From: a virus
Taxonomy: Duplodnaviria; Caudoviricetes
Direction: 5' to 3' (one strand)
DNA: 59,270 nt
IMG/VR virus record: IMGVR_UViG_3300005096_000097
Span: 1-59,270 of that record
Part shown: piece by piece, positions 1,069 to 57,345 of the stretch
Position numbering within the stretch: the stretch's first letter is position 1
Layout of the letters: each line of letters opens with the position of its first letter
Position numbers and translations under genes: made by a program
The notes under the pieces: model-generated
The model's input: the letters and a program-made list of their open reading frames with translations, nothing else
What the model was told of the DNA's origin: nothing
The model's database searches: none

Positions 1069-1335
1069 TTAATTACCACCACTTGCTTGAATGAACGCTC
1101 CGATTAGATTTCCGCTCAAATCTTTCACTGCTAGTGCAATTACTGCGGTTGCAAATATCCAGAACAAACGGGTCTGAAAGACACCTCGCTGTTCCAGGCG
1201 GTCAGTTCTGAGTACAAGACCTGGTTTCCCATTCCCTAGAAGACATGTTTTAATCTCGTCACATACCTTCTCAATGCTCTCAATCTTCACCCCCTGCGCA
1301 GACTGCTCTGCGATGATCTCGTTAAGCTCTGACAT
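1069..1335 (-). CDS. small coiled-coil plus single-TM membrane protein (holin/haemolysin XhlA-like)
   Basis: 88 aa from ATG 1335 with GGAG RBS; N-terminal coiled coil, 'LLGNGKPGL', C-terminal hydrophobic helix LFWIFATAVIALAV. Confidence 0.55.
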   Translation of the reverse strand: MSELNEIIAEQSAQGVKIESIEKVCDEIKTCLLGNGKPGLVLRTDRLEQRGVFQTRLFWIFATAVIALAVKDLSGNLIGAFIQASGGN

Positions 1336-1420: not shown

Positions 1421-2830
1421 TTAGCCAAGCATGATGACGCCCAGGTCAGTATCAAGGACAGCCACACCTGCGAGCATGTCCAGTGTGATCACTGTACCCT
1501 GCTGTGCGAGGTTGTACTGCATCGAAACTCGCATGGAGATGTCGTTGTGGACACCAACTTGCGAACGAACGCCAAGGTCAGATGCTGGCAGAGCCAGAGG
1601 ACGATTGACCAAAGCCAAGGCATCCTTGTGGAAGCCCATGTTGAAGCTACCAGCCGGTCCAGGGAACGCTGGGTCGTTATCATTGATTGCCAATTCCAGA
1701 GGACGATCCGTGAGGATACTCTGAACGGTACCACTGATAATTTCGCTCTCGATGATGGTGTACACCCGGCGTGCAGCACCCGTTCCGAAAGCGATGAGCT
1801 GACCAACCTGTGGGGGCTTGCCAGTTGCAAAACCATCAACATTGATTGGCAGATTGACGCCTGCGGCATAACTGGCAGCCGCTGCACATGCAGAGTAGAT
1901 ATTGACAACAGCACCCGAGGCAGTGTCTGATTCCAGACCTGCATCCAGCGTGATATCACCAACATCACCTACGACATTCGTGAATGCCACGATGTGTCGA
2001 GGTTGGTCATCACCAGCAACCGTGACATACTCGCCACCAACAGCGTTGTAACCAATAACGGTGACGTCGATGAAGGTGTCACCGACACTGTCCGCACCAT
2101 CTGTCACGCCAGCAGAGACATCGCTATCCACAACTCGGGTGGAGGCAATGTTTTGGTCGAGCCAGAAATCAAAGCCCAGAAGGCGACCAAGGGATGCTTC
2201 TTCAAGAGCTGAACCATCATCACCACGTTCGTTAGCACGTAGGAAGAGGTCCGTCTTCAGGAGAGCAGTTTCACTCGAAGGCGAAACAATCATGTTACGC
2301 CGTTGGACGTGTGCCTTGTTCTCGTTCAACTTTTGACGAGCATCAAGGATGGTGTTTCGTGCGTTAGCACCACTGAGTGTTCCCAGACCACCAACTGCGT
2401 TTGCAAGGTAGGCATGTGCCTGACCAAGAACTACGCGGTCAATCGCGCGGGCGACATTCTGCATACCAGGAAGCAAGTGCAGGTCAACCAGGTCTTGGAA
2501 GGACTTCGACGCTTCGCCATCCTTGATGGTGAAGTTGGTGTAGAAGTGCTGGTTCAGCGGCACTTGGACGTTGACCGTGTTCGCATCTTGACCGAGTACA
2601 GGGTCATTGTCACCCTTACGTCGAATCTTGAATTGACCAGGTCGGCGAGTGTTGACAACATCGCCAAAATTGGCAACATCATTCGAGAAATCTCTGTGGA
2701 CCAAGGCCGCTGCGACCATGTTCTCTTCGAGGATTGCAAGACCCATGTTTGCCCAGATCTCCGGGATCATGGCGTCATTGTCATTGATGTACAAAGCCAC
2801 TACAGGCGTGGCAAGGTAAAGAAAGTTCAT
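1421..2830 (-). CDS. major capsid protein, P22 coat (gp5)-like HK97 fold with insertion domains
   Basis: 469 aa; 'IPEIWA', 'GDVVNTRRP', 'GRLLGFDFWLDQN', 'NMGFHKDALALVNRPL', 'ITLDMLAGVAVL' match the P22-coat-like pattern; follows the scaffold. Confidence 0.88.
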   Translation of the reverse strand: MNFLYLATPVVALYINDNDAMIPEIWANMGLAILEENMVAAALVHRDFSNDVANFGDVVNTRRPGQFKIRRKGDNDPVLGQDANTVNVQVPLNQHFYTNFTIKDGEASKSFQDLVDLHLLPGMQNVARAIDRVVLGQAHAYLANAVGGLGTLSGANARNTILDARQKLNENKAHVQRRNMIVSPSSETALLKTDLFLRANERGDDGSALEEASLGRLLGFDFWLDQNIASTRVVDSDVSAGVTDGADSVGDTFIDVTVIGYNAVGGEYVTVAGDDQPRHIVAFTNVVGDVGDITLDAGLESDTASGAVVNIYSACAAAASYAAGVNLPINVDGFATGKPPQVGQLIAFGTGAARRVYTIIESEIISGTVQSILTDRPLELAINDNDPAFPGPAGSFNMGFHKDALALVNRPLALPASDLGVRSQVGVHNDISMRVSMQYNLAQQGTVITLDMLAGVAVLDTDLGVIMLG

Positions 2831-2929
2831 TACTTGTTTCTCCGAGGGGAGTTGAATTTAAGGGATAATCACTCAACGATGAGTGGGGGCACTCAACATT
2901 GAGTGCGAAGATTGAAAGTCCCCGTTTGC

Positions 2930-3847
2930 TTATCGCTGCTTTCGGTCGCGAAGCCCTAACTTGGACGGGTCATCCTTGTAGAGCTTAAACCATTGATCAG
3001 TAGTTAGTTCCTTCTGGTCAATACGTCCGTCTGCACCCGGTTGGATACCACCGGTGGTTGAATTGCCTCCGACACCAGATACCACATTACTCTTGAACAG
3101 GTTGGGTTGCAATTCTTTCAACCGGTCAATGGCATCCATCGGGGTCCGTTGAGTGATGATAGCCTTCTGAGTGTCTGCATCAACATCAGGTAGATCCACC
3201 ATCGGGGTCAGTTCGCCAGTTTTCACGCCGTTCTCGTCAACAGCATCGACTAGCTTTGTCCATTCGCGGACAACTGACAGAATCTGGGCGGGCAGGAATG
3301 CGTCATTTGCATGTGCGGCGTCCATAAGTGATTTCTCAATCAGGAACTGCTTATACTTGTTTTCCCAAGTAATCGCAGCTTCTTTGTATCCGACCAGCTC
3401 ACTCTCATACTTCTCAGTGAGCTGGTTCTTCTCGTGCTTGGCTTGCTCTTCTTTTGAGCGGTGTTGCTTTCGCAAATCCTCCAAGCTTTGTTCCAGTTGG
3501 GTTCGGTCCTCGTCCGAGAGGGCTTTCGTCGCAAGTACATCTTGATAGGACTTTTCAAGTCCCTTGTACTTGTCGTCATGTTTCTTTCGGTCTTTCGCAA
3601 GTCGGTCTTGAACGATCTTGTTTACCGCATCTTGGTCAAAACGCGCCTCTGGATTTACATCAACCAGGGCGTTTGGGTCATCACCAACCATACCAAGACC
3701 ACCTGTACCAGGGGCTGGTGGGGTTGGGTCAATCGGGGTGACTACACCAACGGGGGCTCCATCTTCGCCATCATAGAGGGCGAGGACTGGGTTGGCCAGG
3801 TGTCGGGAATCGAGGAAACGAACATTAAGGGGGTTACGGAACGTCAT
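2930..3847 (-). CDS. capsid scaffolding protein
   Basis: ATG 3847 with GGAG RBS; Pro/Gly-rich N-terminus, 'FDQDAVNKIVQDRLAK' plus long coiled coil, 'PNLFKS...GVGG' tail; directly upstream of the capsid. Confidence 0.8.
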   Translation of the reverse strand: MTFRNPLNVRFLDSRHLANPVLALYDGEDGAPVGVVTPIDPTPPAPGTGGLGMVGDDPNALVDVNPEARFDQDAVNKIVQDRLAKDRKKHDDKYKGLEKSYQDVLATKALSDEDRTQLEQSLEDLRKQHRSKEEQAKHEKNQLTEKYESELVGYKEAAITWENKYKQFLIEKSLMDAAHANDAFLPAQILSVVREWTKLVDAVDENGVKTGELTPMVDLPDVDADTQKAIITQRTPMDAIDRLKELQPNLFKSNVVSGVGGNSTTGGIQPGADGRIDQKELTTDQWFKLYKDDPSKLGLRDRKQR

Positions 3848-3982: not shown

Positions 3983-4540
3983 CTAACTGACACGTGTGAG
4001 GATAATTCTGTCCTCGTCGTACAGGAAGGGTTTCAACCATCGCCACGCTAATGCGTTGGGCACATAGTTGATGATGTGTTCAATTGGCACATGGCTCCGG
4101 CTGTACGCAACACGGACAGACGCATATCCTTGGCTAAGAACACCTAAGTTCTCCAACTCAATCTCGGGGTCTTTACCATCGAGAAGGGAATGGGAGATTT
4201 CATAACAGGCACAGATAACATCTTGGGGAGGTGCCGTGTCATGTCCTCGGGGGAACGCTAGGTTCTGAGACAGCGATGCCTCTTGAACCCCATGCTGGGT
4301 GACACACCCAGCGTCAATGGCTTGTTGAGCGTAGCATTGTGTGCAACCGTTCGTGTCCATCAAGGTCTGAATGGAAGATTTATTACCCTTCCAGTTCAGG
4401 GTGTCAATAATACGTGTGGCAGCTATCAAAGCCTTGGGACGGTCAGTGGGTTTTGCGCGAGTCCAGGCAAATTCGTGGAGTCGGTTGGCAAAGTAATCAG
4501 TGGCGTCCGCTACCGTACCATAATGGTCCGTGTAGTCCAT
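3983..4540 (-). CDS. head-tail adaptor/connector (DnaT-like family)
   Basis: 'YGTVADATDYF', 'ALIAATRIID', 'QNLAFPR' motifs; adjacent to the portal. Confidence 0.7.
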   Translation of the reverse strand: MDYTDHYGTVADATDYFANRLHEFAWTRAKPTDRPKALIAATRIIDTLNWKGNKSSIQTLMDTNGCTQCYAQQAIDAGCVTQHGVQEASLSQNLAFPRGHDTAPPQDVICACYEISHSLLDGKDPEIELENLGVLSQGYASVRVAYSRSHVPIEHIINYVPNALAWRWLKPFLYDEDRIILTRVS

Positions 4541-6421: not shown

Positions 6422-8131
6422 TTACAGGAAGGAACTAATGTCCTGACCCTGAACGTATGATGCTGCTAGAGGCAGCGAAATTTCACAGTAACAGCGGGCA
6501 TGAGCATAGTGATCAGCACCCGTCTTCACATAGACGGCTCGTAAGTTGCCATTTTCATCTTTCTCGTATGTCCGAATCAGATTCTGCATATGGCTACGTG
6601 GTTCCAGCCCCATGTCACGGGGGAGTGCAATCCTGTCTTCAACATGGAACCGACCGAAGGAGCAATCAAGCCAGTTTGTTCGGTCCACCGTTGCAATTTG
6701 AATCTGATTTCCATCCTCAGATAGTTGGATGTCTTTCTGGGAGACACCTCGCCGATACCGGCATAAGGTGACATACCCGGGGAATCGTTGCGCAAATCGA
6801 CGGGCTTCAAGGGTGTTGGGGTCCGCGTCAATCACACAGTGCAGGATTTGCCACTCTCGCATGAGTGCATCTAAGCGGGTCCAGCCGTTCTCAGCTTTGC
6901 CGTTGAATTTCCCGTGCCAGACATTCTTTGCCTTGGCTATGACGTTGATGTCTCGACCATAGCTGTCAAAGAACCATTCATCAATCCAGACGTGGCACCA
7001 ATCACCTTGATCGACACCCATTGTAATGAATCGATTCTCGCCAACCTTTGGGCGAACATCGTCCATACCATGGTTCCGAATACATCGGTCAATCTTATCG
7101 TCCGTGACTTGGCCCCCTTCAGGGACGAAGGGTTGACCTAGTTTGGATTTGTAAAACTCGGACATTGCCCCTTCGTCACCCATACCTCGGTGGTATGCCA
7201 TGGCGATTTTCTTAGGGGACACTGTGAAGCTGTACAACTGGTTGATATTAAAACCACGTTGGTCTTTGTCGGCATTATGATCAGTGGGTAACCAGCCCCC
7301 TGACTTCAGATAGGTTGGTTTCTCTTTATGTTCCAACTTGTGCTGACACTCCATGCACTTTAGGTGGGACTTGGCACAATCCGGGTCATTGACAGTTTCA
7401 CCACGTAGCTCAAAGGACTCAGGCCACACCATCTCAATGCTTTTGCTACAGTGAGGACACTTGAAGTAAAAGTGCTCTTGGGTAGTCGCCTGGTATAGCT
7501 TGTGGATTCCATGATTTGGGACAGTCGGGGTCGAGATCGCCCAGATGTTCTGGGTTACTTGACCACTAAGACGCTCGAATGCTAACCAAATCTGCTCCTG
7601 TGCCATCTCATCGACTTCGTCCAAGATAAGCTCGGACACAGGGATGGATTTTAGGTTACTGTCACCCCGTGAACCACGGATGTACAAGGTGTTTGCACCA
7701 GCTTGCTTCAGGTTTACTGTATTCGTATCAGTAAACATGTTCTTGAGGTACGAGGAGTACTGCAAAGCTGGAGCGAAACGTGACCTGGAAAAGTCGGAGG
7801 CATTCAAAGATGTTGGGAGTACATATAACACATCACGATTGAGGATGTCTAAGATGAAGAAGGCCCGGTTAATCCCAATCTCCGTAAACCCCATCTGGGC
7901 AGCTTTCATGGAGACATTGAAACTCGCGATGGAGTCATGGGGTCCCCTTGCCCAAGGATGGTATTTGAAACCATAGTTTCCTGCAAAATCACCACCCATG
8001 ATTCTGCGTTCTTCTGCCCACCGCGAACATGTCGTGAGGGTCTTTGTTCGGATACCTGCGACAATAGCTTCTCTCAGGTCATCGACGAGTTCTTCACTGG
8101 CCATCCGGTATCCTTGTGTGTCTGAGACCAT
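6422..8131 (-). CDS. terL: terminase large subunit, lambda GpA-like
   Basis: Walker A variant 'KAAQMGFTE', Walker B 'LILDEVDEM', 'ISTPT', CPHC...CMEC zinc site, nuclease 'ITMGVDQG'. Confidence 0.92.
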   Translation of the reverse strand: MVSDTQGYRMASEELVDDLREAIVAGIRTKTLTTCSRWAEERRIMGGDFAGNYGFKYHPWARGPHDSIASFNVSMKAAQMGFTEIGINRAFFILDILNRDVLYVLPTSLNASDFSRSRFAPALQYSSYLKNMFTDTNTVNLKQAGANTLYIRGSRGDSNLKSIPVSELILDEVDEMAQEQIWLAFERLSGQVTQNIWAISTPTVPNHGIHKLYQATTQEHFYFKCPHCSKSIEMVWPESFELRGETVNDPDCAKSHLKCMECQHKLEHKEKPTYLKSGGWLPTDHNADKDQRGFNINQLYSFTVSPKKIAMAYHRGMGDEGAMSEFYKSKLGQPFVPEGGQVTDDKIDRCIRNHGMDDVRPKVGENRFITMGVDQGDWCHVWIDEWFFDSYGRDINVIAKAKNVWHGKFNGKAENGWTRLDALMREWQILHCVIDADPNTLEARRFAQRFPGYVTLCRYRRGVSQKDIQLSEDGNQIQIATVDRTNWLDCSFGRFHVEDRIALPRDMGLEPRSHMQNLIRTYEKDENGNLRAVYVKTGADHYAHARCYCEISLPLAASYVQGQDISSFL

Positions 8132-8233: not shown

Positions 8234-8950
8234 TTAGCCGTCACGCCGTTCGATAGTGGCGTCCGCTGAATCATTGGGGCTGATATCCGAACATGGGACG
8301 TCATCACACATGTCCTGACAATGGGTATCACACTCTGATCGCGTACAATTACCTAAACCCTCACTGGCTCGCTGGTTGTTACACTCAGTCTTGCAATCTG
8401 CACCATCACATAAATCTGGTAGGATCAGGCAGCCATCTTCGCCCGTGACATGCTCGTCACTGAGTTCCACATCCCCGCATAATTTGACTGAAGGGGTTTC
8501 TTCGCCAGCGTCTTCGCCAGCGTCTTCGCCAGCGTCTTCGACAGCGTCTTCGCCAGCGTCTTCGACAGCGTCTTCGACAGCGTCTTCGACAATTGAGGTG
8601 GCTTCAATGACCAGTGGCTCAGGCTTGATGGTCTCGTCTTGGTAGATGTGTCCCCGACCAACTGGATTCCCTTGCGGGTCCACAGGGATGAGGTGGATTT
8701 CACATTCATCAAGAGGTCCGGGGAGTTTAACAATGGCTTCGATAGCACCTGGCTGTACACCACCTGTGCGGTTGAGTTCGCCTGCATGGTAAACTTCAAT
8801 CCGGGTTGCAAGTTGACTAGCCGGGATTGGAATTGTGATTCTCTGTGTCATGGGGTTCTTTGCTTTCGAGGGAAGTAATTTCCCGGCTGGCGGGGCACCC
8901 TTTACAATCGCGGGTGTGGGAGGATGTTTGTTTGTGCTGGCCTCGACCAT
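8234..8950 (-). CDS. hypothetical protein with acidic EDA(V/G) repeats and Cys-rich C-terminus
   Basis: 238 aa ORF in the operon; in-frame 12-bp tandem repeat at about 8500-8590. Confidence 0.6.
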   Translation of the reverse strand: MVEASTNKHPPTPAIVKGAPPAGKLLPSKAKNPMTQRITIPIPASQLATRIEVYHAGELNRTGGVQPGAIEAIVKLPGPLDECEIHLIPVDPQGNPVGRGHIYQDETIKPEPLVIEATSIVEDAVEDAVEDAGEDAVEDAGEDAGEDAGEETPSVKLCGDVELSDEHVTGEDGCLILPDLCDGADCKTECNNQRASEGLGNCTRSECDTHCQDMCDDVPCSDISPNDSADATIERRDG

Positions 8951-10541: not shown

Positions 10542-12101
10542 TTAGTAAAGCTTGTAGTCAAGGTTCTGGCTAGGGTAGCCAAGGTAATTTGACAGGGCAT
10601 AACTGTCGTCCCATGCCAACATCTTCTCAAGGATTCGAGCGTCAACCCAGAAGGACCCCGGGGGCTGCCCCAATCGTGTTGGTCCACTGTTCCAGTCAGG
10701 TCCCCAGCTATTCAGTAGGAGTCCGCCAGATCGCTTCCCTGAGTCATCAATACCTGCCAGTAACATACAGTGATACCAGGTATCTTTGGCTTTTGCAAAG
10801 CCATCCCGGTCGCGGGTGTCTTTGAAGCCTTGGTCAGAGCAGATGACTACCGGGTAGCCATTATAGACCGAATCTCGTGCTTCTTCCCAGGTTCTGACTA
10901 GGGTTGTGGTCCTGACCGGGTGTCTCTTGGAGATTACCTCAAGGTCATCGGGTACTCCGCCACCCCAGGTTGTGCATTTCTCACAGTTGTGTGCCCAGTC
11001 ACGGGCTTTGGCACCACTGTAGTTGGTAAAGTCATACTTACCATCGAGGTAGGGTCGTCGGAGTAACACCCCACCTTCGCGACACCACTGGGCTGCCCAG
11101 CTACCTGTCGAACCATCTCCATTAACAACTCCTTTGCCAACTTCGACTCGGGAGCCCGCATAAATGACCTCAGTGGCACACTTGGCTTGCCACTCGCCAT
11201 TCCCTTGACTTGCTTGGACGGCGTCCAGGATATCAATTCCAAGACCCCACCCATGGGACACACAGTTGTGGACGGCAACCCCATTTGCGATAAAAGAGTG
11301 GTGTGCATCTGCTACCCCAATATCATAGACCTTGGAGGGGGCTTCAATACTCGTCACACCTTTCACAGGTCGGCAGTAAAAGGAGAGGAATAACCAGTCG
11401 GGGTCTTGGAACAGGTTCGGAACCTGGCTAAGGTCACTTTTAGGTGTCAACAGGTAATCGGTGTCTCGTAAGTCACCAGCTTGTATCCACTCAGGTTGGC
11501 GTGTTTCATAAACCTGGCAAACAGCCTGGTTACTGGATCCATTAACACATCGTTCGTAAAATGCTTTGTTGACTCGTTTTCCAGCAACCCAGCACGTCCT
11601 GTACACTAGGAACTGGTGATCCTCAGTGACTTCGATGGCTTCACCCCCCGTCACATCAACACGGACCATACCTGACCGAGGGGTCAGTTCCCGAGTACTA
11701 ACGACGTCGGTCAGTGTTCCTAACCCCGTAAAGACCTGGTCACCAACTTGGATGTCTTCAATGGGGACCACACTCATACTAGTTTGGACCATTGTGCCAG
11801 CCGCAAAGCAGTCACCAATGGCCTGGTCGTGAGGCGCAATGGGCGTGCCAGTGGCAGTCTCCATGAACTTCCACAGTGGGGCAACTTTACCCTCACCTGA
11901 ACCTGCCAATTGGCGTCCGGCTTGAGCAAAGTAGTGGACCTTGTTCTGTGACTTGAACTTAGCGGTTGCTCGTTTGTTTGGCTTCCAACCCGCATAGACA
12001 GGGCGACTACCAGCTAGGAGTTCTTTTGGAAGGAGGAGACCTGCGGCGAGTCCCGTGGCGAGTCCCGTGGTTGTTTTGAGGAAGTCTCGCCTAGAAACCA
12101 T
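10542..12101 (-). CDS. Tat-exported papain-like (C1) cysteine peptidase containing an intein
   Basis: Tat motif SRRDFLK plus hydrophobic core; spliced sequence Q-A-I-G-D-C-V-S-H-G (catalytic Cys), WYHCM (His), LLNSWG (Asn). Confidence 0.88.
   Translation of the reverse strand: MVSRRDFLKTTTGLATGLAAGLLLPKELLAGSRPVYAGWKPNKRATAKFKSQNKVHYFAQAGRQLAGSGEGKVAPLWKFMETATGTPIAPHDQAIGDCFAAGTMVQTSMSVVPIEDIQVGDQVFTGLGTLTDVVSTRELTPRSGMVRVDVTGGEAIEVTEDHQFLVYRTCWVAGKRVNKAFYERCVNGSSNQAVCQVYETRQPEWIQAGDLRDTDYLLTPKSDLSQVPNLFQDPDWLFLSFYCRPVKGVTSIEAPSKVYDIGVADAHHSFIANGVAVHNCVSHGWGLGIDILDAVQASQGNGEWQAKCATEVIYAGSRVEVGKGVVNGDGSTGSWAAQWCREGGVLLRRPYLDGKYDFTNYSGAKARDWAHNCEKCTTWGGGVPDDLEVISKRHPVRTTTLVRTWEEARDSVYNGYPVVICSDQGFKDTRDRDGFAKAKDTWYHCMLLAGIDDSGKRSGGLLLNSWGPDWNSGPTRLGQPPGSFWVDARILEKMLAWDDSYALSNYLGYPSQNLDYKLY
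11265..11810 (-). mobile_element. mini-intein (Hint domain, 182 aa, no intact homing endonuclease)
   Basis: Block A CFAAGTMV, block B VTEDHQF, block F VYDIGV, block G 'HSFIANGVAVHN' followed by Cys+1. Confidence 0.92.
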
Positions 12102-25802: not shown

Positions 25803-27431
25803 GTGGCTACAGTGACTTCAAACACAGTACTGTCCAGGTGGTGGAGATTCATTACAAGAATCTCAAAGCGGCGGGTTTGTATTTGGACGGTGAGCTGAGG
25901 GTTAACGGTGAATTCGCCTACGAAGTCTGCCAGTGCATAAATCAGAAGTGGATGGAATGCCTAACCGAATTTGGGTGGGATGGCGATTATGGGCGGCGCG
26001 TACTTAAAGGGTACTACGCCAAGAGGTTCTTTACTGGTAGTCAGTGGGTCCTCCCTGATCACTTCTCGAAGTTCCCTTGGCATCAGAGTACAACAACCTG
26101 GCATGGACCTACAGTTGAGCGAGTGGCAGCAAATAATCGCGAGAAGGAACGGTTATATGCACAATCTTGATGCAATCAAAGTCGTTTATGTTGTAATTGA
26201 CGACGATACCCGGCAGGCATATGTCCTCTATGTTGATGGTGAGCTAGAAGCCACGGGCTTCAACAGCATCCAGAAAGCCATGTCTGCGTCCCTTGAATCG
26301 GGGTGGTCTGGTCGCTACGAACGCATCAACATGAATGGACTAAGTGCCTACTTGACCTATACAGAATATGCACATATGCCTGACAGTCTTGAGAATTTGT
26401 TAGAACATCGGCGTGTCGAGCATGTGGCTTGTGTATTTTCGGGAGAGCTTGACTGATGAATCTTGATTACGTTAAAGTCGTTTATGTTGTAATTGACGAT
26501 GATACCCGGCAGCGGCGTGGGCTCTACATCGATGATAAGCTAGAAGCTGTTGGTATTGAGGGCTGTCGGTTGGCGATGGCTGCGTCTTATGAATCGGGGT
26601 GGTCTGGGCTCTACGAGCGAATGTACATGAACGGATTAGGGGCTTATCTTCTCTGCGAAGAGTACATGATCATGCCTGTCACCCTTGAGGAATTGTTAGA
26701 TGGTGGCTGTCTCGAATCTGGGGCTTGCATATTCCCTGAGGAGCTTGACTGAAATGAATCTTAATAAAATCGAAGTGGTCTACGTTGTAATTGACGATGA
26801 TACCCGGCAGCGGCGTGGGCTGTATGTGGGTGGTGAGCTAGAAGCTGTTGGTAAGGATGCTGCCCGACAGAGTATGACTTTGTTATGGGAGTTGGGGTGG
26901 ACCGGTCCCTATGAGCAGGTGTTTCTGACTGGTATTTACTCGTATGAGTTTTGTGAAGATTATGCTGACATGCCTGACACTTTGGATGAAGTTCTTTTAT
27001 GTGGTGGTGTCGAGAATGGTTTTCGTCAATTCCCTGCGGAGCTTGATTAAACAATGGCTGACATCAAAGACATACGAATCACGTTGGTTGTGGTCAATCC
27101 CGAGGAGTGCCACCCGCTGATTGGACTCTATGTGAACCATCACCTGACTGACGGCGGGCATTGGGATCCGAACGACACAATCAAGCGGATTGACGCCTGG
27201 CTATCCGTGCTACAGTCCTCCGGGTGGGGTGGGAAGTACACCTGTATGGAGTACAACCAAGTCAATAAAGACGTCTACTTCATGAATGGACTTCCAGTGT
27301 GGGACGACGAATTACGATCTGCCCCACCAAATCGCTATGCAAAGTGTGTACGCTCATTTGGGGATACGAATACGATTCGTGAATCGGCGTGGGACATCGA
27401 ATACAATCCTCCTTTAGTACCTTTTGATTAG
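25799..27431 (+). CDS. five tandem paralogous genes (25799-26170, 26157-26456, 26456-26752, 26754-27050, 27054-27431)
   Basis: Shared 'I.V.YV.ID......GLY.DGEL...G.......GW.G.Y'; the middle three are near-identical at DNA level. Confidence 0.75.
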
Positions 27432-44111: not shown

Positions 44112-47085
44112 TTGGGAGTTAACGAAATGATGCTTATGTTGAATGTGGCGAGTGCCTTGGCAGTACTGTCAATCCTCGGGAGCCTACTTTACCGTTTCAC
44201 CCGTGAGTGCTTTGAGGTTGATGAACTCCAATTCCTTGGACCCGTCGCGATTATCCTCTGGCTACTGGGAGGCTTCCTCCTAGGTGTCCTGATGACACAG
44301 CATGGGGCATTCGGATCCATTTTCGCCTGGGTGGGTTTCGTCCCGTGGTTGGGGTGCCCCATTTACCTGATTACCAAAACTAGGGAGACCCCTAATGTCT
44401 AGTATGATACCTGCCCTCACGGTTCTGCTCATCTTTAGCTTCTGGCGGAACATTGTCTGGGAGATTCGGGCGGGTCGTGATGACCCTACTCTCTGTGGCG
44501 CCTCAGCTTCTGATAAGCATGCTTATGCGTGGCAGAAGGTAGCATTTATTGGCTTTTACATTACTACATTCATCTGTTTCTTAGAGGCATGGAAATGATT
44601 TGGTTCTTCGCGACACTCCTCAGTCTGCTGATGGTGCCTTTTATTGTGGGTGCTGGCTGGTTTGCTTACCAAGCCCTGGACTGCGAACGCTGGAAAGACG
44701 CAAGACTTCACGTTGGGGGTGTCGGCATTTGCGCAAGTGGCGTCTTCTTCTTCAGTGTCATGCTCTTACTTATAGGATACCTCCAATGTTAACTCCATGT
44801 CTTTGGGTGTGGTTCTCCGCAAGCATCCTCATTTGGGCAGGTTGTATGTACCGCTGGCGATGCCTGAACGACTCTAGTGACTTCAATGTGCTCATGCCGG
44901 TATTGGGCTGCATTTCCTCCTTAGTTTGCTTATCCACCATGGTGTACCATGTAGACAGCATGGCAACTGGGGTGATTGGCTTTGTAGCGACTATAGCATG
45001 GCTTGCTTGTGCCGGTACCTTATTCCTAGGAGACCCCGAATGATTGCTTGTACAATTCTGTGGTTCTTAACTTCCGTACTCGTCTGTGTCTGCCTGGATA
45101 AGAAGATGAGAGCACTACAGCACCCCCTGCGAGACGATTATGTGTGCTACCGGGCACTAACCTGGGTGACGTCCCTGGTCGCCCTATCACTGCTCTTCGT
45201 ACAAACCGAAGGGACTTACTTCACGGGGGTTGTCTCAGCCACGGCTGGGTTGTGGGTTGCCGGCTCAGTGTGGATCTTTTACTTTAATCAAGAGGTGGAG
45301 TGATGATTGCTTGTTTGGTTTTCGGCTATGTAGTTAGTCTGGTTATTTGTGCCCTAGCACATCAGAAGCTTAAGCAGATTCAAGGCCAACGTGGACATAT
45401 GGATCACCGCGAGCGGGAGATAGCTGAGTACATGCAAGGTTGGCGTGCCTTTGGATGGGTTTCCTCCATTGCACTAACCTTCCTTGGTCTAGCCCTCGCA
45501 AGTGGGTGGGGTTTCCTGCTTATGGCCCCTGTCGCCGGTATCTGGATTGCTGCCACAGTGTGGATGTTCTTCATTGACACAGTGGAGAACAATCGATGAT
45601 AGGCTGCCTGGTTTTCGGATTTATTGTCTGTGTGGTTCTGTGTGGTTGCTGCCACCAAAAGTTGCTCCACTTAAAAACACTACCCGCCCCACTAAACGAG
45701 ATATACAACCCTGCGTGTTACCCAACCCCTGACCCAAACCAATACCGGGACAGTGCGATTATGTGCATGGAGATATTTCGAGGGGTAACTTGGGGCCTCA
45801 CGGTTGCTCTATTCCTTATCGCTTTTACCCATGCCAACACCTGGCAGACTATAGTTTTGGCTCCGGTCATGGCGGTCTGGTTGGCAGGGACAGTTTGGAT
45901 GTTCTTTATCAATGGGAGTTCGACGTAATGCTTGTACTGTTTCTGTGGTTGACAACCACCTTCATGTTGTGTACCGGTTTCCATTTCAGAGCGGGTAGCC
46001 ATGAGAACAAAGATGTGGCGGAGGGGTTCATGATTGCACGTGGGGCGGCTTGGGTGGCAACACTTGGGTTGGTTTCATTTATGTGTGCAGTTAAACCAGA
46101 GACCAATGTATCCGTAGTACCCGTATTGGTGGCATTACCCATCGCGATGTTGTGGTTCGGGTGGTCAGTGTGGATGTTTTTCCTTGACAAGAGGGTGCAG
46201 AGATGGGATACTTGATAGTGTTGCTGTTTTTGGCAATGTGTGGGACACTAGCGGCGATCATTGTGATCGTTATATCTGAGTACCAGTCCCGCCGGGGTTA
46301 CCTCTCTGAGTGGGCGGTAGCCCTAATCGTAGCACTGACAGTTGTGTCCCTATTACTAGCTGGGCAGATAGGCGTCCTGAGTGCAACAACTGCGACTGTG
46401 CGTGGGATGTTGCAACCAGGTGTTGAGTTTTATGAGGGTGGTAACCCTCTTGAAGAAACACAGATTACTGGAGTTAAACAATGATTTATGAGCTAATGAT
46501 GTTGCTGGCGTTTCTGACTGGTTGTTTCTGCCTGTACAAGTTTACCAGGTGGACTGACGCCTGGGTTATCTGGTTGGTAGCAGCGGGAGTTTCATGGGGT
46601 GTTGGATTGACGACCTTTGCTTTCTGGATGCTTGAGGGTATCAATGCGTTGATTTAATGAATGTGTTACTGTTCTGGGCGTTTGTGATGTGCTTCGTGAC
46701 AAGCTTGGCTTTGGATTTCTATGGTCTCCGCTGCCATTTTGGCACCGAGACAGGGCGTCGACTTGACAAAGTGTCAGCAACGCTAAAACTAGTCGGTCTT
46801 GCCTGTATCATCGCAAAATTTATCACCACATAGGGGGTATCGATGAATCTTCTGATTGGAATTTGCCTGATGTTCTGGTGTATCCTAAACGTGTATGGCG
46901 TGAAGATGGTCGTGTATGAGTTCACGGACATCCTGTCTGACAGAGCGGGTAGTTACCTCACCACACGTATTCGGGTTTTAGGCGTCATTTTCGGATCATT
47001 CACTTTAGCGATTTCAGTTGCCGTCTTTGGATTTTCTATTGCAGCTTTCCGCGATGGGGTCTGCCCTATGGAGTACCTGAGATGA
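44112..47085 (+). CDS. array of small membrane proteins (44112-44402, 44395-44598, 44595-44792, 44786-45043, 45040-45303, 45300-45599, 45596-45928, 45928-46215, 46203-46484, 46843-47085)
   Basis: All 65-110 aa with 2-3 TM helices and coupled starts/stops; the five central genes share 'M..(C/L)......C.....R...W.......W...(T/S)VW.FF'. Confidence 0.7.
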
Positions 47086-52149: not shown

Positions 52150-52611
52150 ATGCTTGAGACTAAAGGTTCAGTGAACATCACGACGGAATTCGTTAGCGAC
52201 GGGTACCGCTATTTTGTGGGTACAATCACGCAGTGTTTGGGGTGTCTGGATGTGCCAAAATACATCTCGGTTGAGAAACAGATAGGGTCCCGGGGTGCCA
52301 GTGCCGAAATCATATTTGTGGACGAATGCCCTAATGACACACCCTCGGACAAGTTGGTCGAACTCCAGATAGTGGCGAAGCGCCTTGATTACCCGTCACC
52401 TGTGTTGCCAATCGACGGTCGGTTCTTCGGGGATGGTGATATCCTACTTGTTGAGGCTCTGGAGACCGTTGCGCCAGGGATGAAATTCTGCCTGGAGGGT
52501 AAAAGTGGTGAGTATGTGTGCCAGAGCTGTACTCGGAGAACCATACATGGTGGTGACCCGGATGATGAGCTAGTGTTCCTGGTGGTTGCCACTGAGGTGG
52601 GGACAGCCTAG
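52150..52611 (+). CDS. two-domain hypothetical protein (paralogue of 53737-54204)
   Basis: 'ETK.SVNIT.EFV.DG.RYFVGTIT...GMKFCLEGK' shared. Confidence 0.75.
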   Translation: MLETKGSVNITTEFVSDGYRYFVGTITQCLGCLDVPKYISVEKQIGSRGASAEIIFVDECPNDTPSDKLVELQIVAKRLDYPSPVLPIDGRFFGDGDILLVEALETVAPGMKFCLEGKSGEYVCQSCTRRTIHGGDPDDELVFLVVATEVGTA

Positions 52612-53736: not shown

Positions 53737-54204
53737 ATGAGTGAGACTAAAGCTTCAGTGAACATCACGTCGGAGTTCGTCATCGACGGGTTTCGATATT
53801 TCGTAGGTACAATCACGCACTGCCGGCGGTGGTGTACTGGGGGTCCCAAATACATCCAGTTGAGCCCTCAGGAGGATCGTGCCCAAGTTCAGTTTATGGA
53901 AGACTTCCCTAAGGATGTGACCCTGGACCAGTTAGTCGAACTCCAGATAGTTGCGAGGACATTTGATTACCCGAACCCTGTGGTGGCGACCTACGACGAA
54001 TTGCTTGTTGACGACCACATATTGGTTATTGAGACCCTGGAGGGCATCACGATAGGGATGAAGTTCTGCCTGGAGGGTAAAATTGACGTGTACCTGTGTG
54101 AGAGCTGCCGGCGGATCACCAAACATGATGATCCTGCTAACAACAAGGACCAGAAAGAAGTGTACCTGGTGGTTGCCACCCGCGTACCGTTTGGGACAAG
54201 CTGA
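53737..54204 (+). CDS. two-domain hypothetical protein (paralogue of 52150-52611)
   Basis: GGAGG RBS; high similarity to 52150-52611. Confidence 0.75.
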   Translation: MSETKASVNITSEFVIDGFRYFVGTITHCRRWCTGGPKYIQLSPQEDRAQVQFMEDFPKDVTLDQLVELQIVARTFDYPNPVVATYDELLVDDHILVIETLEGITIGMKFCLEGKIDVYLCESCRRITKHDDPANNKDQKEVYLVVATRVPFGTS

Positions 54205-56818: not shown

Positions 56819-57345
56819 TCGGCGTGGTATGCCACCCCTATCAGGGGCATAGCCACCCCTATCAGGGGTCTCGGCGTGGTATACTACCTCAGAGGGGTAG
56901 GGCATAGCCACCCCTATCAGGGGGTAGGGCATAGCCACCCCTATCAGGGGGTAGGGCATAGCCACCCCTATCAGGGGTCTTGGCGTGGTATACTACCTCA
57001 GAGGGGTAGGGCATAGCCACCCCTATCAGGGGGTAGGGCATAGCCACCCCTATCAGGGGGTAGGGCATAGCCGCCCTATCAGGGGTCTCGGCGTGGTATA
57101 CTACCTCAGAGGGGTAGGGCATAGCCGCCCCTATCAGGGGGTAGGGCATAGCCGCCCCTATCAGGGGGTAGGGCATAGCCGCCCCTATCAGGGGTCTCGG
57201 CGTATCGGCGTGGTATACCCCCATCAGGGGGTAGGGCGGGCTCATGTCGCAATATGCCACCTATAGGGGGTGTATACCACGCCGATGCACCTATCAGGGT
57301 ACCCACCACGCCGATACCCCTATCAGGGGGTGTATACCACGCTGA
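56819..57345. repeat. hierarchical repeat: 27-bp unit GGGCATAGCC(A/G)CCCCTATCAGGGGGTA x3 nested in a ~109-bp unit x3
   Basis: 109-bp units start at about 56869, 56978 and 57086; the CCCCTATCAGGGG core recurs about 13 times. Confidence 0.9.

Follow-up and report, generated by a model that had tools for sequence, protein, structure and literature searches.

In the Staphylococcus phage 80alpha the capsid (CP) and scaffolding (SP) proteins share an N-terminal leader, of which the host protease Prp removes 13–14 residues by cutting between F and A; the leader motif is also present on the major tail protein of a related phage (PMC5744158). The same paper states that the scaffold leader is needed for assembly and its cleavage dispensable, and suggests a common chaperone; the leader is described as mimicking the N-terminal extension of the host ribosomal protein L27, with the motif MLxx(D/N)LQ(F/L)F'A(S/H)KK, in PMC9405229. 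Here, a comparable pair of leaders was analyzed on the coat and scaffold proteins encoded by the window, a DNA stretch of 59,270 nucleotides (nt) from a virus of the class Caudoviricetes (IMG/VR record IMGVR_UViG_3300005096_000097, positions 1 to 59,270). The window is a linear record estimated to be 56% complete, and negative results obtained on it cover that share of the genome. Leaders of this kind were found to be conserved as an element in a large family of relatives. Beyond what an earlier note on this DNA had proposed, their residues are specific to each phage and co-vary between its proteins, a third virion protein carries them in some relatives, and they seem to have been repeatedly lost.

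The head module (terminase, portal, adaptor, scaffold and coat) lies at the left end of the window on the minus strand. The two genes in question and their leaders are:

1421–2830, minus strand: major capsid (coat) protein gene, P22-like coat fold, 469 amino acids (aa); PF11651 E 2.3e-21, phrog_283 E 9.3e-50
2789–2830, minus strand: coat leader, residues 1–14 (MNFLYLATPVVALY), proposed boundary after Y14
2930–3847, minus strand: gene for the scaffolding protein, 305 aa, read from its ATG at 3847; phrog_206 E 1.3e-6
3773–3847, minus strand: scaffold leader, residues 1–25, proposed boundary after Y25, then an acidic, Pro-rich linker

The coat N-terminus reads MNFLYLATPVVALYINDNDAMIPEIW and that of the scaffold MTFRNPLNVRFLDSRHLANPVLALYDGEDG, and a GGAGAA Shine-Dalgarno-like box precedes both start codons alike. 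The motif LAxPVxALY, which the earlier note had read in both proteins, was recovered exactly where it had been placed, as LATPVVALY in the coat (residues 6–14, positions 2789–2815) and LANPVLALY in the scaffold (residues 17–25, positions 3773–3799), with seven of nine residues identical. Only one of the seven shared residues is encoded by an identical codon and the DNA differs at most synonymous sites, so that the likeness resides at the protein level. Among 4,278 pairs of open reading frames (ORFs) of the window, four match at seven or more of nine residues, the coat/scaffold pair included. Other pairs sharing 8/9 or 7/9 in their first 30 residues are 52150–52611 with 53737–54204 (plus strand) and 45303–45599 with 45596–45928, both probably paralogues. 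The motif is short and the coat gene contains an internal ATG (Met21), which could speak for a chance resemblance or a wrongly chosen start codon. This explanation is almost certainly wrong: none of 20,000 composition-preserving shuffles of both 30-residue N-termini reached 7/9 (33 reached 6), and in loci such as L062 the sole start codon lies upstream of the leader. Moreover, Met21 is replaced by L or F in many homologues, which identifies the upstream ATG as the coat start and the leader as translated.

The earlier note had also located the capsid motif just before the point where P22-like coats normally start, and alignments agree with this. The protein is a member of the P22_CoatProtein family (PF11651, 76.5 bits versus a cut-off of 24), and the match spans residues 22–263, beginning at profile position 8, that is, past the leader. 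PDB relatives 8zdh, 9jwb and 8e16 align only from coat residues 18–23, and distant cultured Vibrio phage relatives from residue 16 onward. An AlphaFold2 (AF2) model of the scaffold contains a coiled coil (residues 72–180), a small alpha/beta domain (186–246) and C-terminal helices (283–297).

Conservation of the leader was assessed in the best 120 (down to 52% identity) of 1448 coat homologues found at E ≤ 1e-5 among 8000 scored candidates, and in 91 scaffold homologues. The coat leader was present in 107 of the 120, with 10–33 residues, mostly 13–14, and the form M-N-x-L-Y ... [P/A]-V-[VLI]-[S/A]-[L/C]-[Y/F], followed by [A/V]-N-D-N-D-A; the 13 coats lacking it were mostly gene calls beginning at an internal Met within the conserved N-arm. 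Scaffold homologues carried a leader in 85 of 91 cases, 11–34 residues long and ending in [L/C]-[Y/F], after which come [D/E]-G-[D/E] and then a linker of low complexity, acidic and rich in Pro or Ala. Counting outwards from the boundary, 105 of the 107 coats have Y or F as the last leader residue (P1), as do, owing to the search pattern itself, 85 of 85 scaffolds; P2 is L/C, P3 S/A, P1' A/V in the coat or D/E in the scaffold, P2' N/G and P3' D/E. Thus, the conservation that the earlier note had asked of homologues holds for the leader as an element, its individual residues being phage-specific and not fixed. A lipoprotein box or signal peptide, considered for leaders ending in ..ACF or ..SCY, was rejected on inspection: these peptides are too short, have no basic n-region, and show Leu in place of Cys in the clade of the window. 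A profile search of 1.84 billion cluster representatives (50%-identity clusters) extended the family to 4,272 coat relatives at E ≤ 0.001. A rough automatic sort of 151 proteins (149 new best hits, P0055 and the window coat) assigned 115 to leaders with an aromatic end (Y 52, F 51, H 6, W 6), flagged 16 as leaderless, and left 8 with another extension and 12 unusable calls.

Leaders of coat and scaffold match within a phage and differ between phages. A first set comprised 37 pairs, 22 of the same contig and 15 from loci L001–L019 and the window. Own pairs shared on average 5.81 of the last 10 leader positions versus 3.54 for shuffled partners, a value that 0 of 10,000 shuffles reached; kinship inflates such tests, and the shuffle count is not to be read as a probability. 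The difference was also seen within the clade having Leu at P2 (6.17 own versus 5.04 shuffled, n = 24) and within the clade having Cys there (5.5 versus 3.51, n = 12), and it persisted with P1 and P2 omitted. A second, independent and more diverse set was drawn from 57 IMG/VR loci found with distant coats, of which 13 were dropped (8 without a complete upstream ORF, 4 with the scaffold site and 1 with the coat site missed by the rule). The remaining 44 loci yielded 33 distinct pairs which, with some sites visibly mis-set, shared 4.24 of 10 positions versus 1.77 after shuffling, again reached by 0 of 10,000 shuffles. By eye, PFRLVY, PEITVY, WIPVF, TVGF, LLAY and RSWYG each recur in the coat and the scaffold of a single phage and are absent from other phages. 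Own pairs used identical codons for 29 of their 80 shared residues, and cross pairs for 255 of 614; as codon identity is not higher in own pairs, recent gene conversion does not explain the matching. Judged from the sequences, the leader residues are kept alike in each phage by selection on the peptide while drifting between phages. Several such pairs can occur in one host: chromosome G003, a Thermoguttaceae metagenome-assembled genome (MAG), contains three related prophages (L006, L016 and a third near 2.69 Mb), each with its own coat/scaffold leader pair.

Some members of the family have no leader. Twelve coat representatives start with M-[AGSPV]-N exactly at the P1' residue of the leader-bearing forms, and the coat M-A-N of L036 and L127 is closely preceded by an in-frame stop codon. 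The scaffolds of these two loci are also leaderless (2/2), as are both coat and scaffold of the distant cultured phages SSP002 and PBR31, in which the coat starts at the boundary. No case of a leader on only one of the two proteins was found among loci with both N-termini readable, four scaffolds being excluded by the site rule. On a FastTree tree of the coat body, built with the leader columns left out and bearing 128 labelled representatives, the 12 leaderless coats require 12 state changes; shuffled labels require 11.6 on average, and the leaderless forms are thus as scattered as random ones. Losses or gains of the leader module seem to have been numerous.

A third carrier was noticed in an unbiased scan with the last seven residues of the coat leader. 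The scan was weak, the scaffold start being the unique best match in 12 of 51 loci, with mostly ties or chance matches elsewhere; in seven other loci the top match fell 2.3–4.2 kb downstream, at the start of another gene. The N-terminus of this family reads A-[RQKA]-I-[DE]-L-[KR]. Among 49 distinct N-termini, 25 have an M-A start with no alternative start codon upstream, and about 19 bear a leader matching the coat leader of the same phage. In L038 the tail-gene and coat leaders are identical at 10 of 10 residues, and in L008, L071 and L073 the whole leaders differ by one to four residues. Identical codons encode 45 of 81 residues shared by coat and tail leaders, and the leader-coding DNA is identical at 38 of 45 nt in L008 and 31 of 33 nt in L038. 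The 45 nt upstream of the two leaders, ribosome site included, match at 13–17 positions only. This indicates that exactly the peptide-coding piece moves between coat and tail genes, and it rules out a copied expression cassette.

In the complete relative G006, the coat gene is followed by genes for proteins of 426 aa and 168 aa, the third carrier, a 175-aa protein and the tape measure (phrog_23013 E 1.7e-33), which places the third carrier two genes upstream of the tape measure, the usual position of the major tail protein. Language-model look-alikes were Phi812_tail_tube (0.96) and Phage_tail_2, Phage_tail_3 and TTP (0.87–0.93); there was no match in Pfam, PHROGs or PDB, and hhalign against the SSP002 tail gene gave a probability of 0.1. 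The third carrier is thus a probable, not proven, major tail protein. A tblastn search for its gene in the window gave no meaningful hit, the window ending before that gene, and the copy in the closest complete relative of the window is leaderless. Several of the loci L047, L064, L050, L042, L049 and L069 encode the putative major tail protein as two tandem paralogues, and in L069 only the first of them bears a leader. Variant leader ends were seen in L114/L115, L132, L041 and L037/L038: some clades have W-Y-G, W-V-G or L-G before the presumed mature Ala, and others have His last in the coat and tail protein and Phe/Tyr in the scaffold.

The hosts are Planctomycetota (Thermoguttaceae, Pirellulales and Planctomycetaceae), as judged from 21 prophage loci, a few of them in otherwise-named bins. 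Prp (PF04327) was detected in none of five Planctomycetota host genomes, in which, as MAGs, absence is no proof, nor in the window or, at E ≤ 10, in five related phage records; the positive controls, genomes of Bacillus, Thermotoga and Lactococcus, were all detected. Host L27 starts directly with MAHKKGQGSS in all five host genomes, with no extension. When the window, G006 and three host genomes (one with three prophages) were searched with a 14-column leader profile, coat and scaffold proteins were its only matches. A profile of the three leaders of L008 retrieved from its 9.2-Mb host MAG only those three phage proteins (33–35 bits), the next match scoring 16 bits; in all, leader profiles matched only these phage proteins in G000 (the window), G006, G001, G003, G005 and G007. 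The comparison of host proteomes that the earlier note had proposed, with L27 and other proteins, was therefore negative, for L27 in five host genomes and for other proteins in the four searched with leader profiles, and the leader is not a copy of any host protein in them. The L27-mimicry part of the 80alpha model fails on these grounds, there being no Prp, no long L27 and no leader-bearing host protein; what stands of the analogy drawn in the earlier note is that 80alpha is the closest described system, with a leader shared by coat and scaffold and an aromatic end. A leader copied from the extension of a host protein, and cut by the enzyme that processes that protein, would account for the same layout as in 80alpha (coat, scaffold and sometimes tail protein), the aromatic P1 and the Ala at P1'. 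Given the results above, and leaders that vary widely among phages of one host phylum, such mimicry is very improbable.

The earlier note had stated that no prohead protease gene lies in this head module, and no protease family matched there. The remaining genes of the module are:

3983–4540, minus strand: Ad1-like head-tail adaptor gene, 185 aa; phrog_477 E 2.6e-12, PF20557 31.7 bits
4540–6408, minus strand: portal protein gene; phrog_145 E 9.2e-34
6422–8131, minus strand: large terminase gene; phrog_675 E 1.7e-84, GpA_ATPase and GpA_nuclease

The 185-aa gene occupies the slot between portal and scaffold, often the site of a protease, and was considered as a hidden one. This was rejected: it matches Ad1, has no invariant Cys or Ser and no PDB relative, and is kept in all loci, including the leaderless L036 and L127, which also indicates that it is not leader-specific. 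Peptidase families S78, S49 and ClpP had no match in the window or in G006, and matches in the three host genomes searched lay far from the prophages; S77 and S78_2 were absent from five phage records and Prok-JAB from six. C39_2 gave in six phage records a single sub-threshold match, located in a 519-aa protein of the window that has a twin-arginine translocation (TAT) signal and Hint. This protein (10542–12101, minus strand) has Hint/intein-like matches (PF14890, PF13403), and its homologue in G006 has only 335 aa; the window copy may be an exported and possibly lytic enzyme interrupted by an intein-like insert. PHROGs scans of 20 neighbouring proteins and Pfam scans of 10 of the 20 families common to three complete relatives gave replication or structural functions only and no peptidase. 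No gene family within 3.5 kb separated leader-bearing from leaderless loci.

Taken as a whole, the leader is best explained as one portable N-terminal module of 8–25 residues, hydrophobic and with an aromatic end, which this phage lineage places on its most abundant self-assembling virion proteins: always the coat and scaffold, and in part of the family the putative tail protein too. The reading we favour, for which we judge the case to be evenly poised, is that the leader acts as a transient propeptide, read by one common factor and clipped after the aromatic residue. All leader copies of one phage would then be read by one common partner, and clipping after the terminal Y/F would leave a coat starting A/I-N-D-N-D-A..., a scaffold starting D-G-E-D... 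and a tail protein starting A-x-I-D-L-K.... The cutter would be a host endopeptidase needing little beyond an aromatic P1, or an undescribed phage protein, and not Prp. A propeptide is favoured because the last residue is the best conserved, because leaderless forms begin with Met-Ala at this very boundary, and because the 80alpha leader is cleaved; the coincidence with the start of leaderless coats and tail proteins implies that the same mature Ala N-terminus would be reached by both routes. Several points weigh against this proposal. The case for cleavage is wholly positional and by analogy, no cut having been observed, and a module appended to an existing protein would end at the old N-terminus whether removed or not. 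No protease was found among the families sought (Prp, S78, S49, ClpP, S77, S78_2 and Prok-JAB, with C39_2 sub-threshold only). The leader is dispensable in evolution, as the scatter of the 12 leaderless coats among 128 indicates; some leaders end in G, H or W instead of Y/F (L114, L132, L037), and some pairs match poorly (L006 3/10, L013 1/10, L119 0/10). A host enzyme of fixed specificity does not explain the co-variation of P3–P10; either the upstream part of the leader would also serve another purpose, for instance pairing or the binding of a chaperone, or the partner would be a rapidly evolving phage protein of an undescribed family. Structure predictions weigh neither way: the AF2 confidence measure (pLDDT) is below 50 for the leader in both coat and scaffold, and a complex prediction for coat 15–469 with scaffold 1–60, scoring 0.01, speaks neither for nor against binding.

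The main rival to a clipped propeptide is an uncleaved recognition tag, because in 80alpha the scaffold leader is needed, its cleavage is dispensable and a common chaperone has been suggested (PMC5744158). Leaders might bind one another, for example by in-register strand pairing, possibly co-translationally, or bind a phage-specific chaperone; this is possible, though we consider it doubtful. By such a tag a phage's own coat, scaffold and tail subunits might find each other, an equally doubtful suggestion, which would be useful where several related prophages share a cell, as the three with different leaders in the G003 host chromosome do. Within-phage identity combined with between-phage divergence is what self-pairing or a phage-encoded partner would predict; the genes share one mRNA, which makes co-translational pairing possible; and the lack of a detected protease also fits. 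However, the same tag on the tail protein is ill-suited to a role in coat-scaffold pairing, the near-invariant final aromatic residue and the exact replacement of the leader by an initiator Met look more like a processing site, and repeated loss shows that assembly can proceed independently of the leader. The likeness could also be a by-product, the 5' end of the coat gene, which is highly expressed, being copied onto other late genes with no role for the peptide. The near-identical coat and tail leader DNA of L008 and L038 and the codon identity between coat and tail leaders would fit this, but the copied piece runs from the ATG to the boundary and no further upstream, coat and scaffold leaders retain their residues through saturated synonymous change, and the terminal aromatic with its acidic or Asn-rich context is conserved across the family of 4,272 proteins; we regard such copying as improbable. 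A bolder proposal joins recognition and clipping: leaders would be phage-specific barcodes on coat, scaffold and often tail subunit, recognized mutually or by a fast-evolving partner, perhaps on the ribosome, so as to prevent mixed particles, and would then be clipped by a peptidase class new to virus assembly. We offer it as speculation and think it rather unlikely in full.

Other features of the window and its relatives were recorded. Directly after the coat gene, an 88-aa ORF (1069–1335, minus strand) has a hydrophobic C-terminal stretch resembling a membrane helix; it has a counterpart of 47% identity in L001, belongs to a family of about 95 aa present in 13 of 52 loci, and has no family match. 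Just upstream of the terminase, a 238-aa protein (8234–8950, minus strand) contains an acidic repeat (EDAVEDAGEDAG-like), is rich in Cys towards its C-terminus and likewise has no family match. Three direct repeats of about 100 nt, spaced 296–298 nt (26160–26853, plus strand), are the starts of three tandem small paralogous genes with a common VVYVVIDDDTRQ-like N-terminus. At 56830–57230, a 130-nt unit occurs eight times with register shifts of 27 nt; the array is a 27-nt periodic repeat within overlapping ORFs on both strands. A terminal duplication of the window, considered on account of two 304-aa ORFs at its ends, was ruled out, no long direct repeat being found. Among the relatives, a core gene of G006 (L031:17683–18228) with homologues in G009 and G010 encodes a dATP/dGTP diphosphohydrolase N-terminal domain (PF18909, E 1e-26), an enzyme type linked to modified-base phage genomes.

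Short N-terminal peptides on several virion proteins have a precedent in the internal proteins of T4, in which several unrelated virion proteins bear a capsid-targeting sequence that the prohead protease cleaves off after use. That sequence brings minor proteins into the core of the head, and its protease is a known phage enzyme, whereas here the peptide is carried by the major coat protein, the scaffold and the tail subunit. N-terminal removal during assembly is a common theme of heads of the HK97, lambda and T4 types (S78, S49/ClpP and S77, respectively), protease families that are absent from the window and from three complete relatives. As in P22, the coat belongs to PF11651, and the scaffold is encoded by a gene of its own and has a helical C-terminus. 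The closest cultured phages are only about 26–30% identical, and the cultured relatives of the coat family, SSP002 and PBR31, differ from the window in having neither protein extended beyond the boundary. In the part of the phage A4 structure paper that is accessible, coat N-terminal processing is not mentioned. A literature search for comparable leaders, covering main texts and with supplements outside its scope, retrieved only the 80alpha/Prp work.

Compared with 80alpha as portrayed in that work, the window shows a short leader on both coat and scaffold (14 and 25 residues here), an aromatic end that precedes Ala in the coat, the lack of a phage prohead protease, and the motif on the major tail protein of a related phage there and, putatively, of relatives here. 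It differs in that its hosts have neither Prp nor an L27 extension, that its leader is without a host counterpart and is phage-specific and co-varying, that its coat is P22-like, and that cleavage would here be a matter of inference. What is new is thus a phage-specific, co-varying leader of the 80alpha kind that involves neither Prp nor L27. The current picture of head maturation rests on a few protease families and a single host-protease case, that of 80alpha, and a very large uncultured family, with 4,272 coat relatives, uses an 80alpha-like layout without Prp, a host model protein or a known head protease. If the leader is cut, there is a new peptidase to be discovered; if it is not, virus assembly would be using a self-recognition tag of a new kind. 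In both cases, these leaders may help to account for the need of 80alpha for a scaffold leader whose cleavage it can do without.

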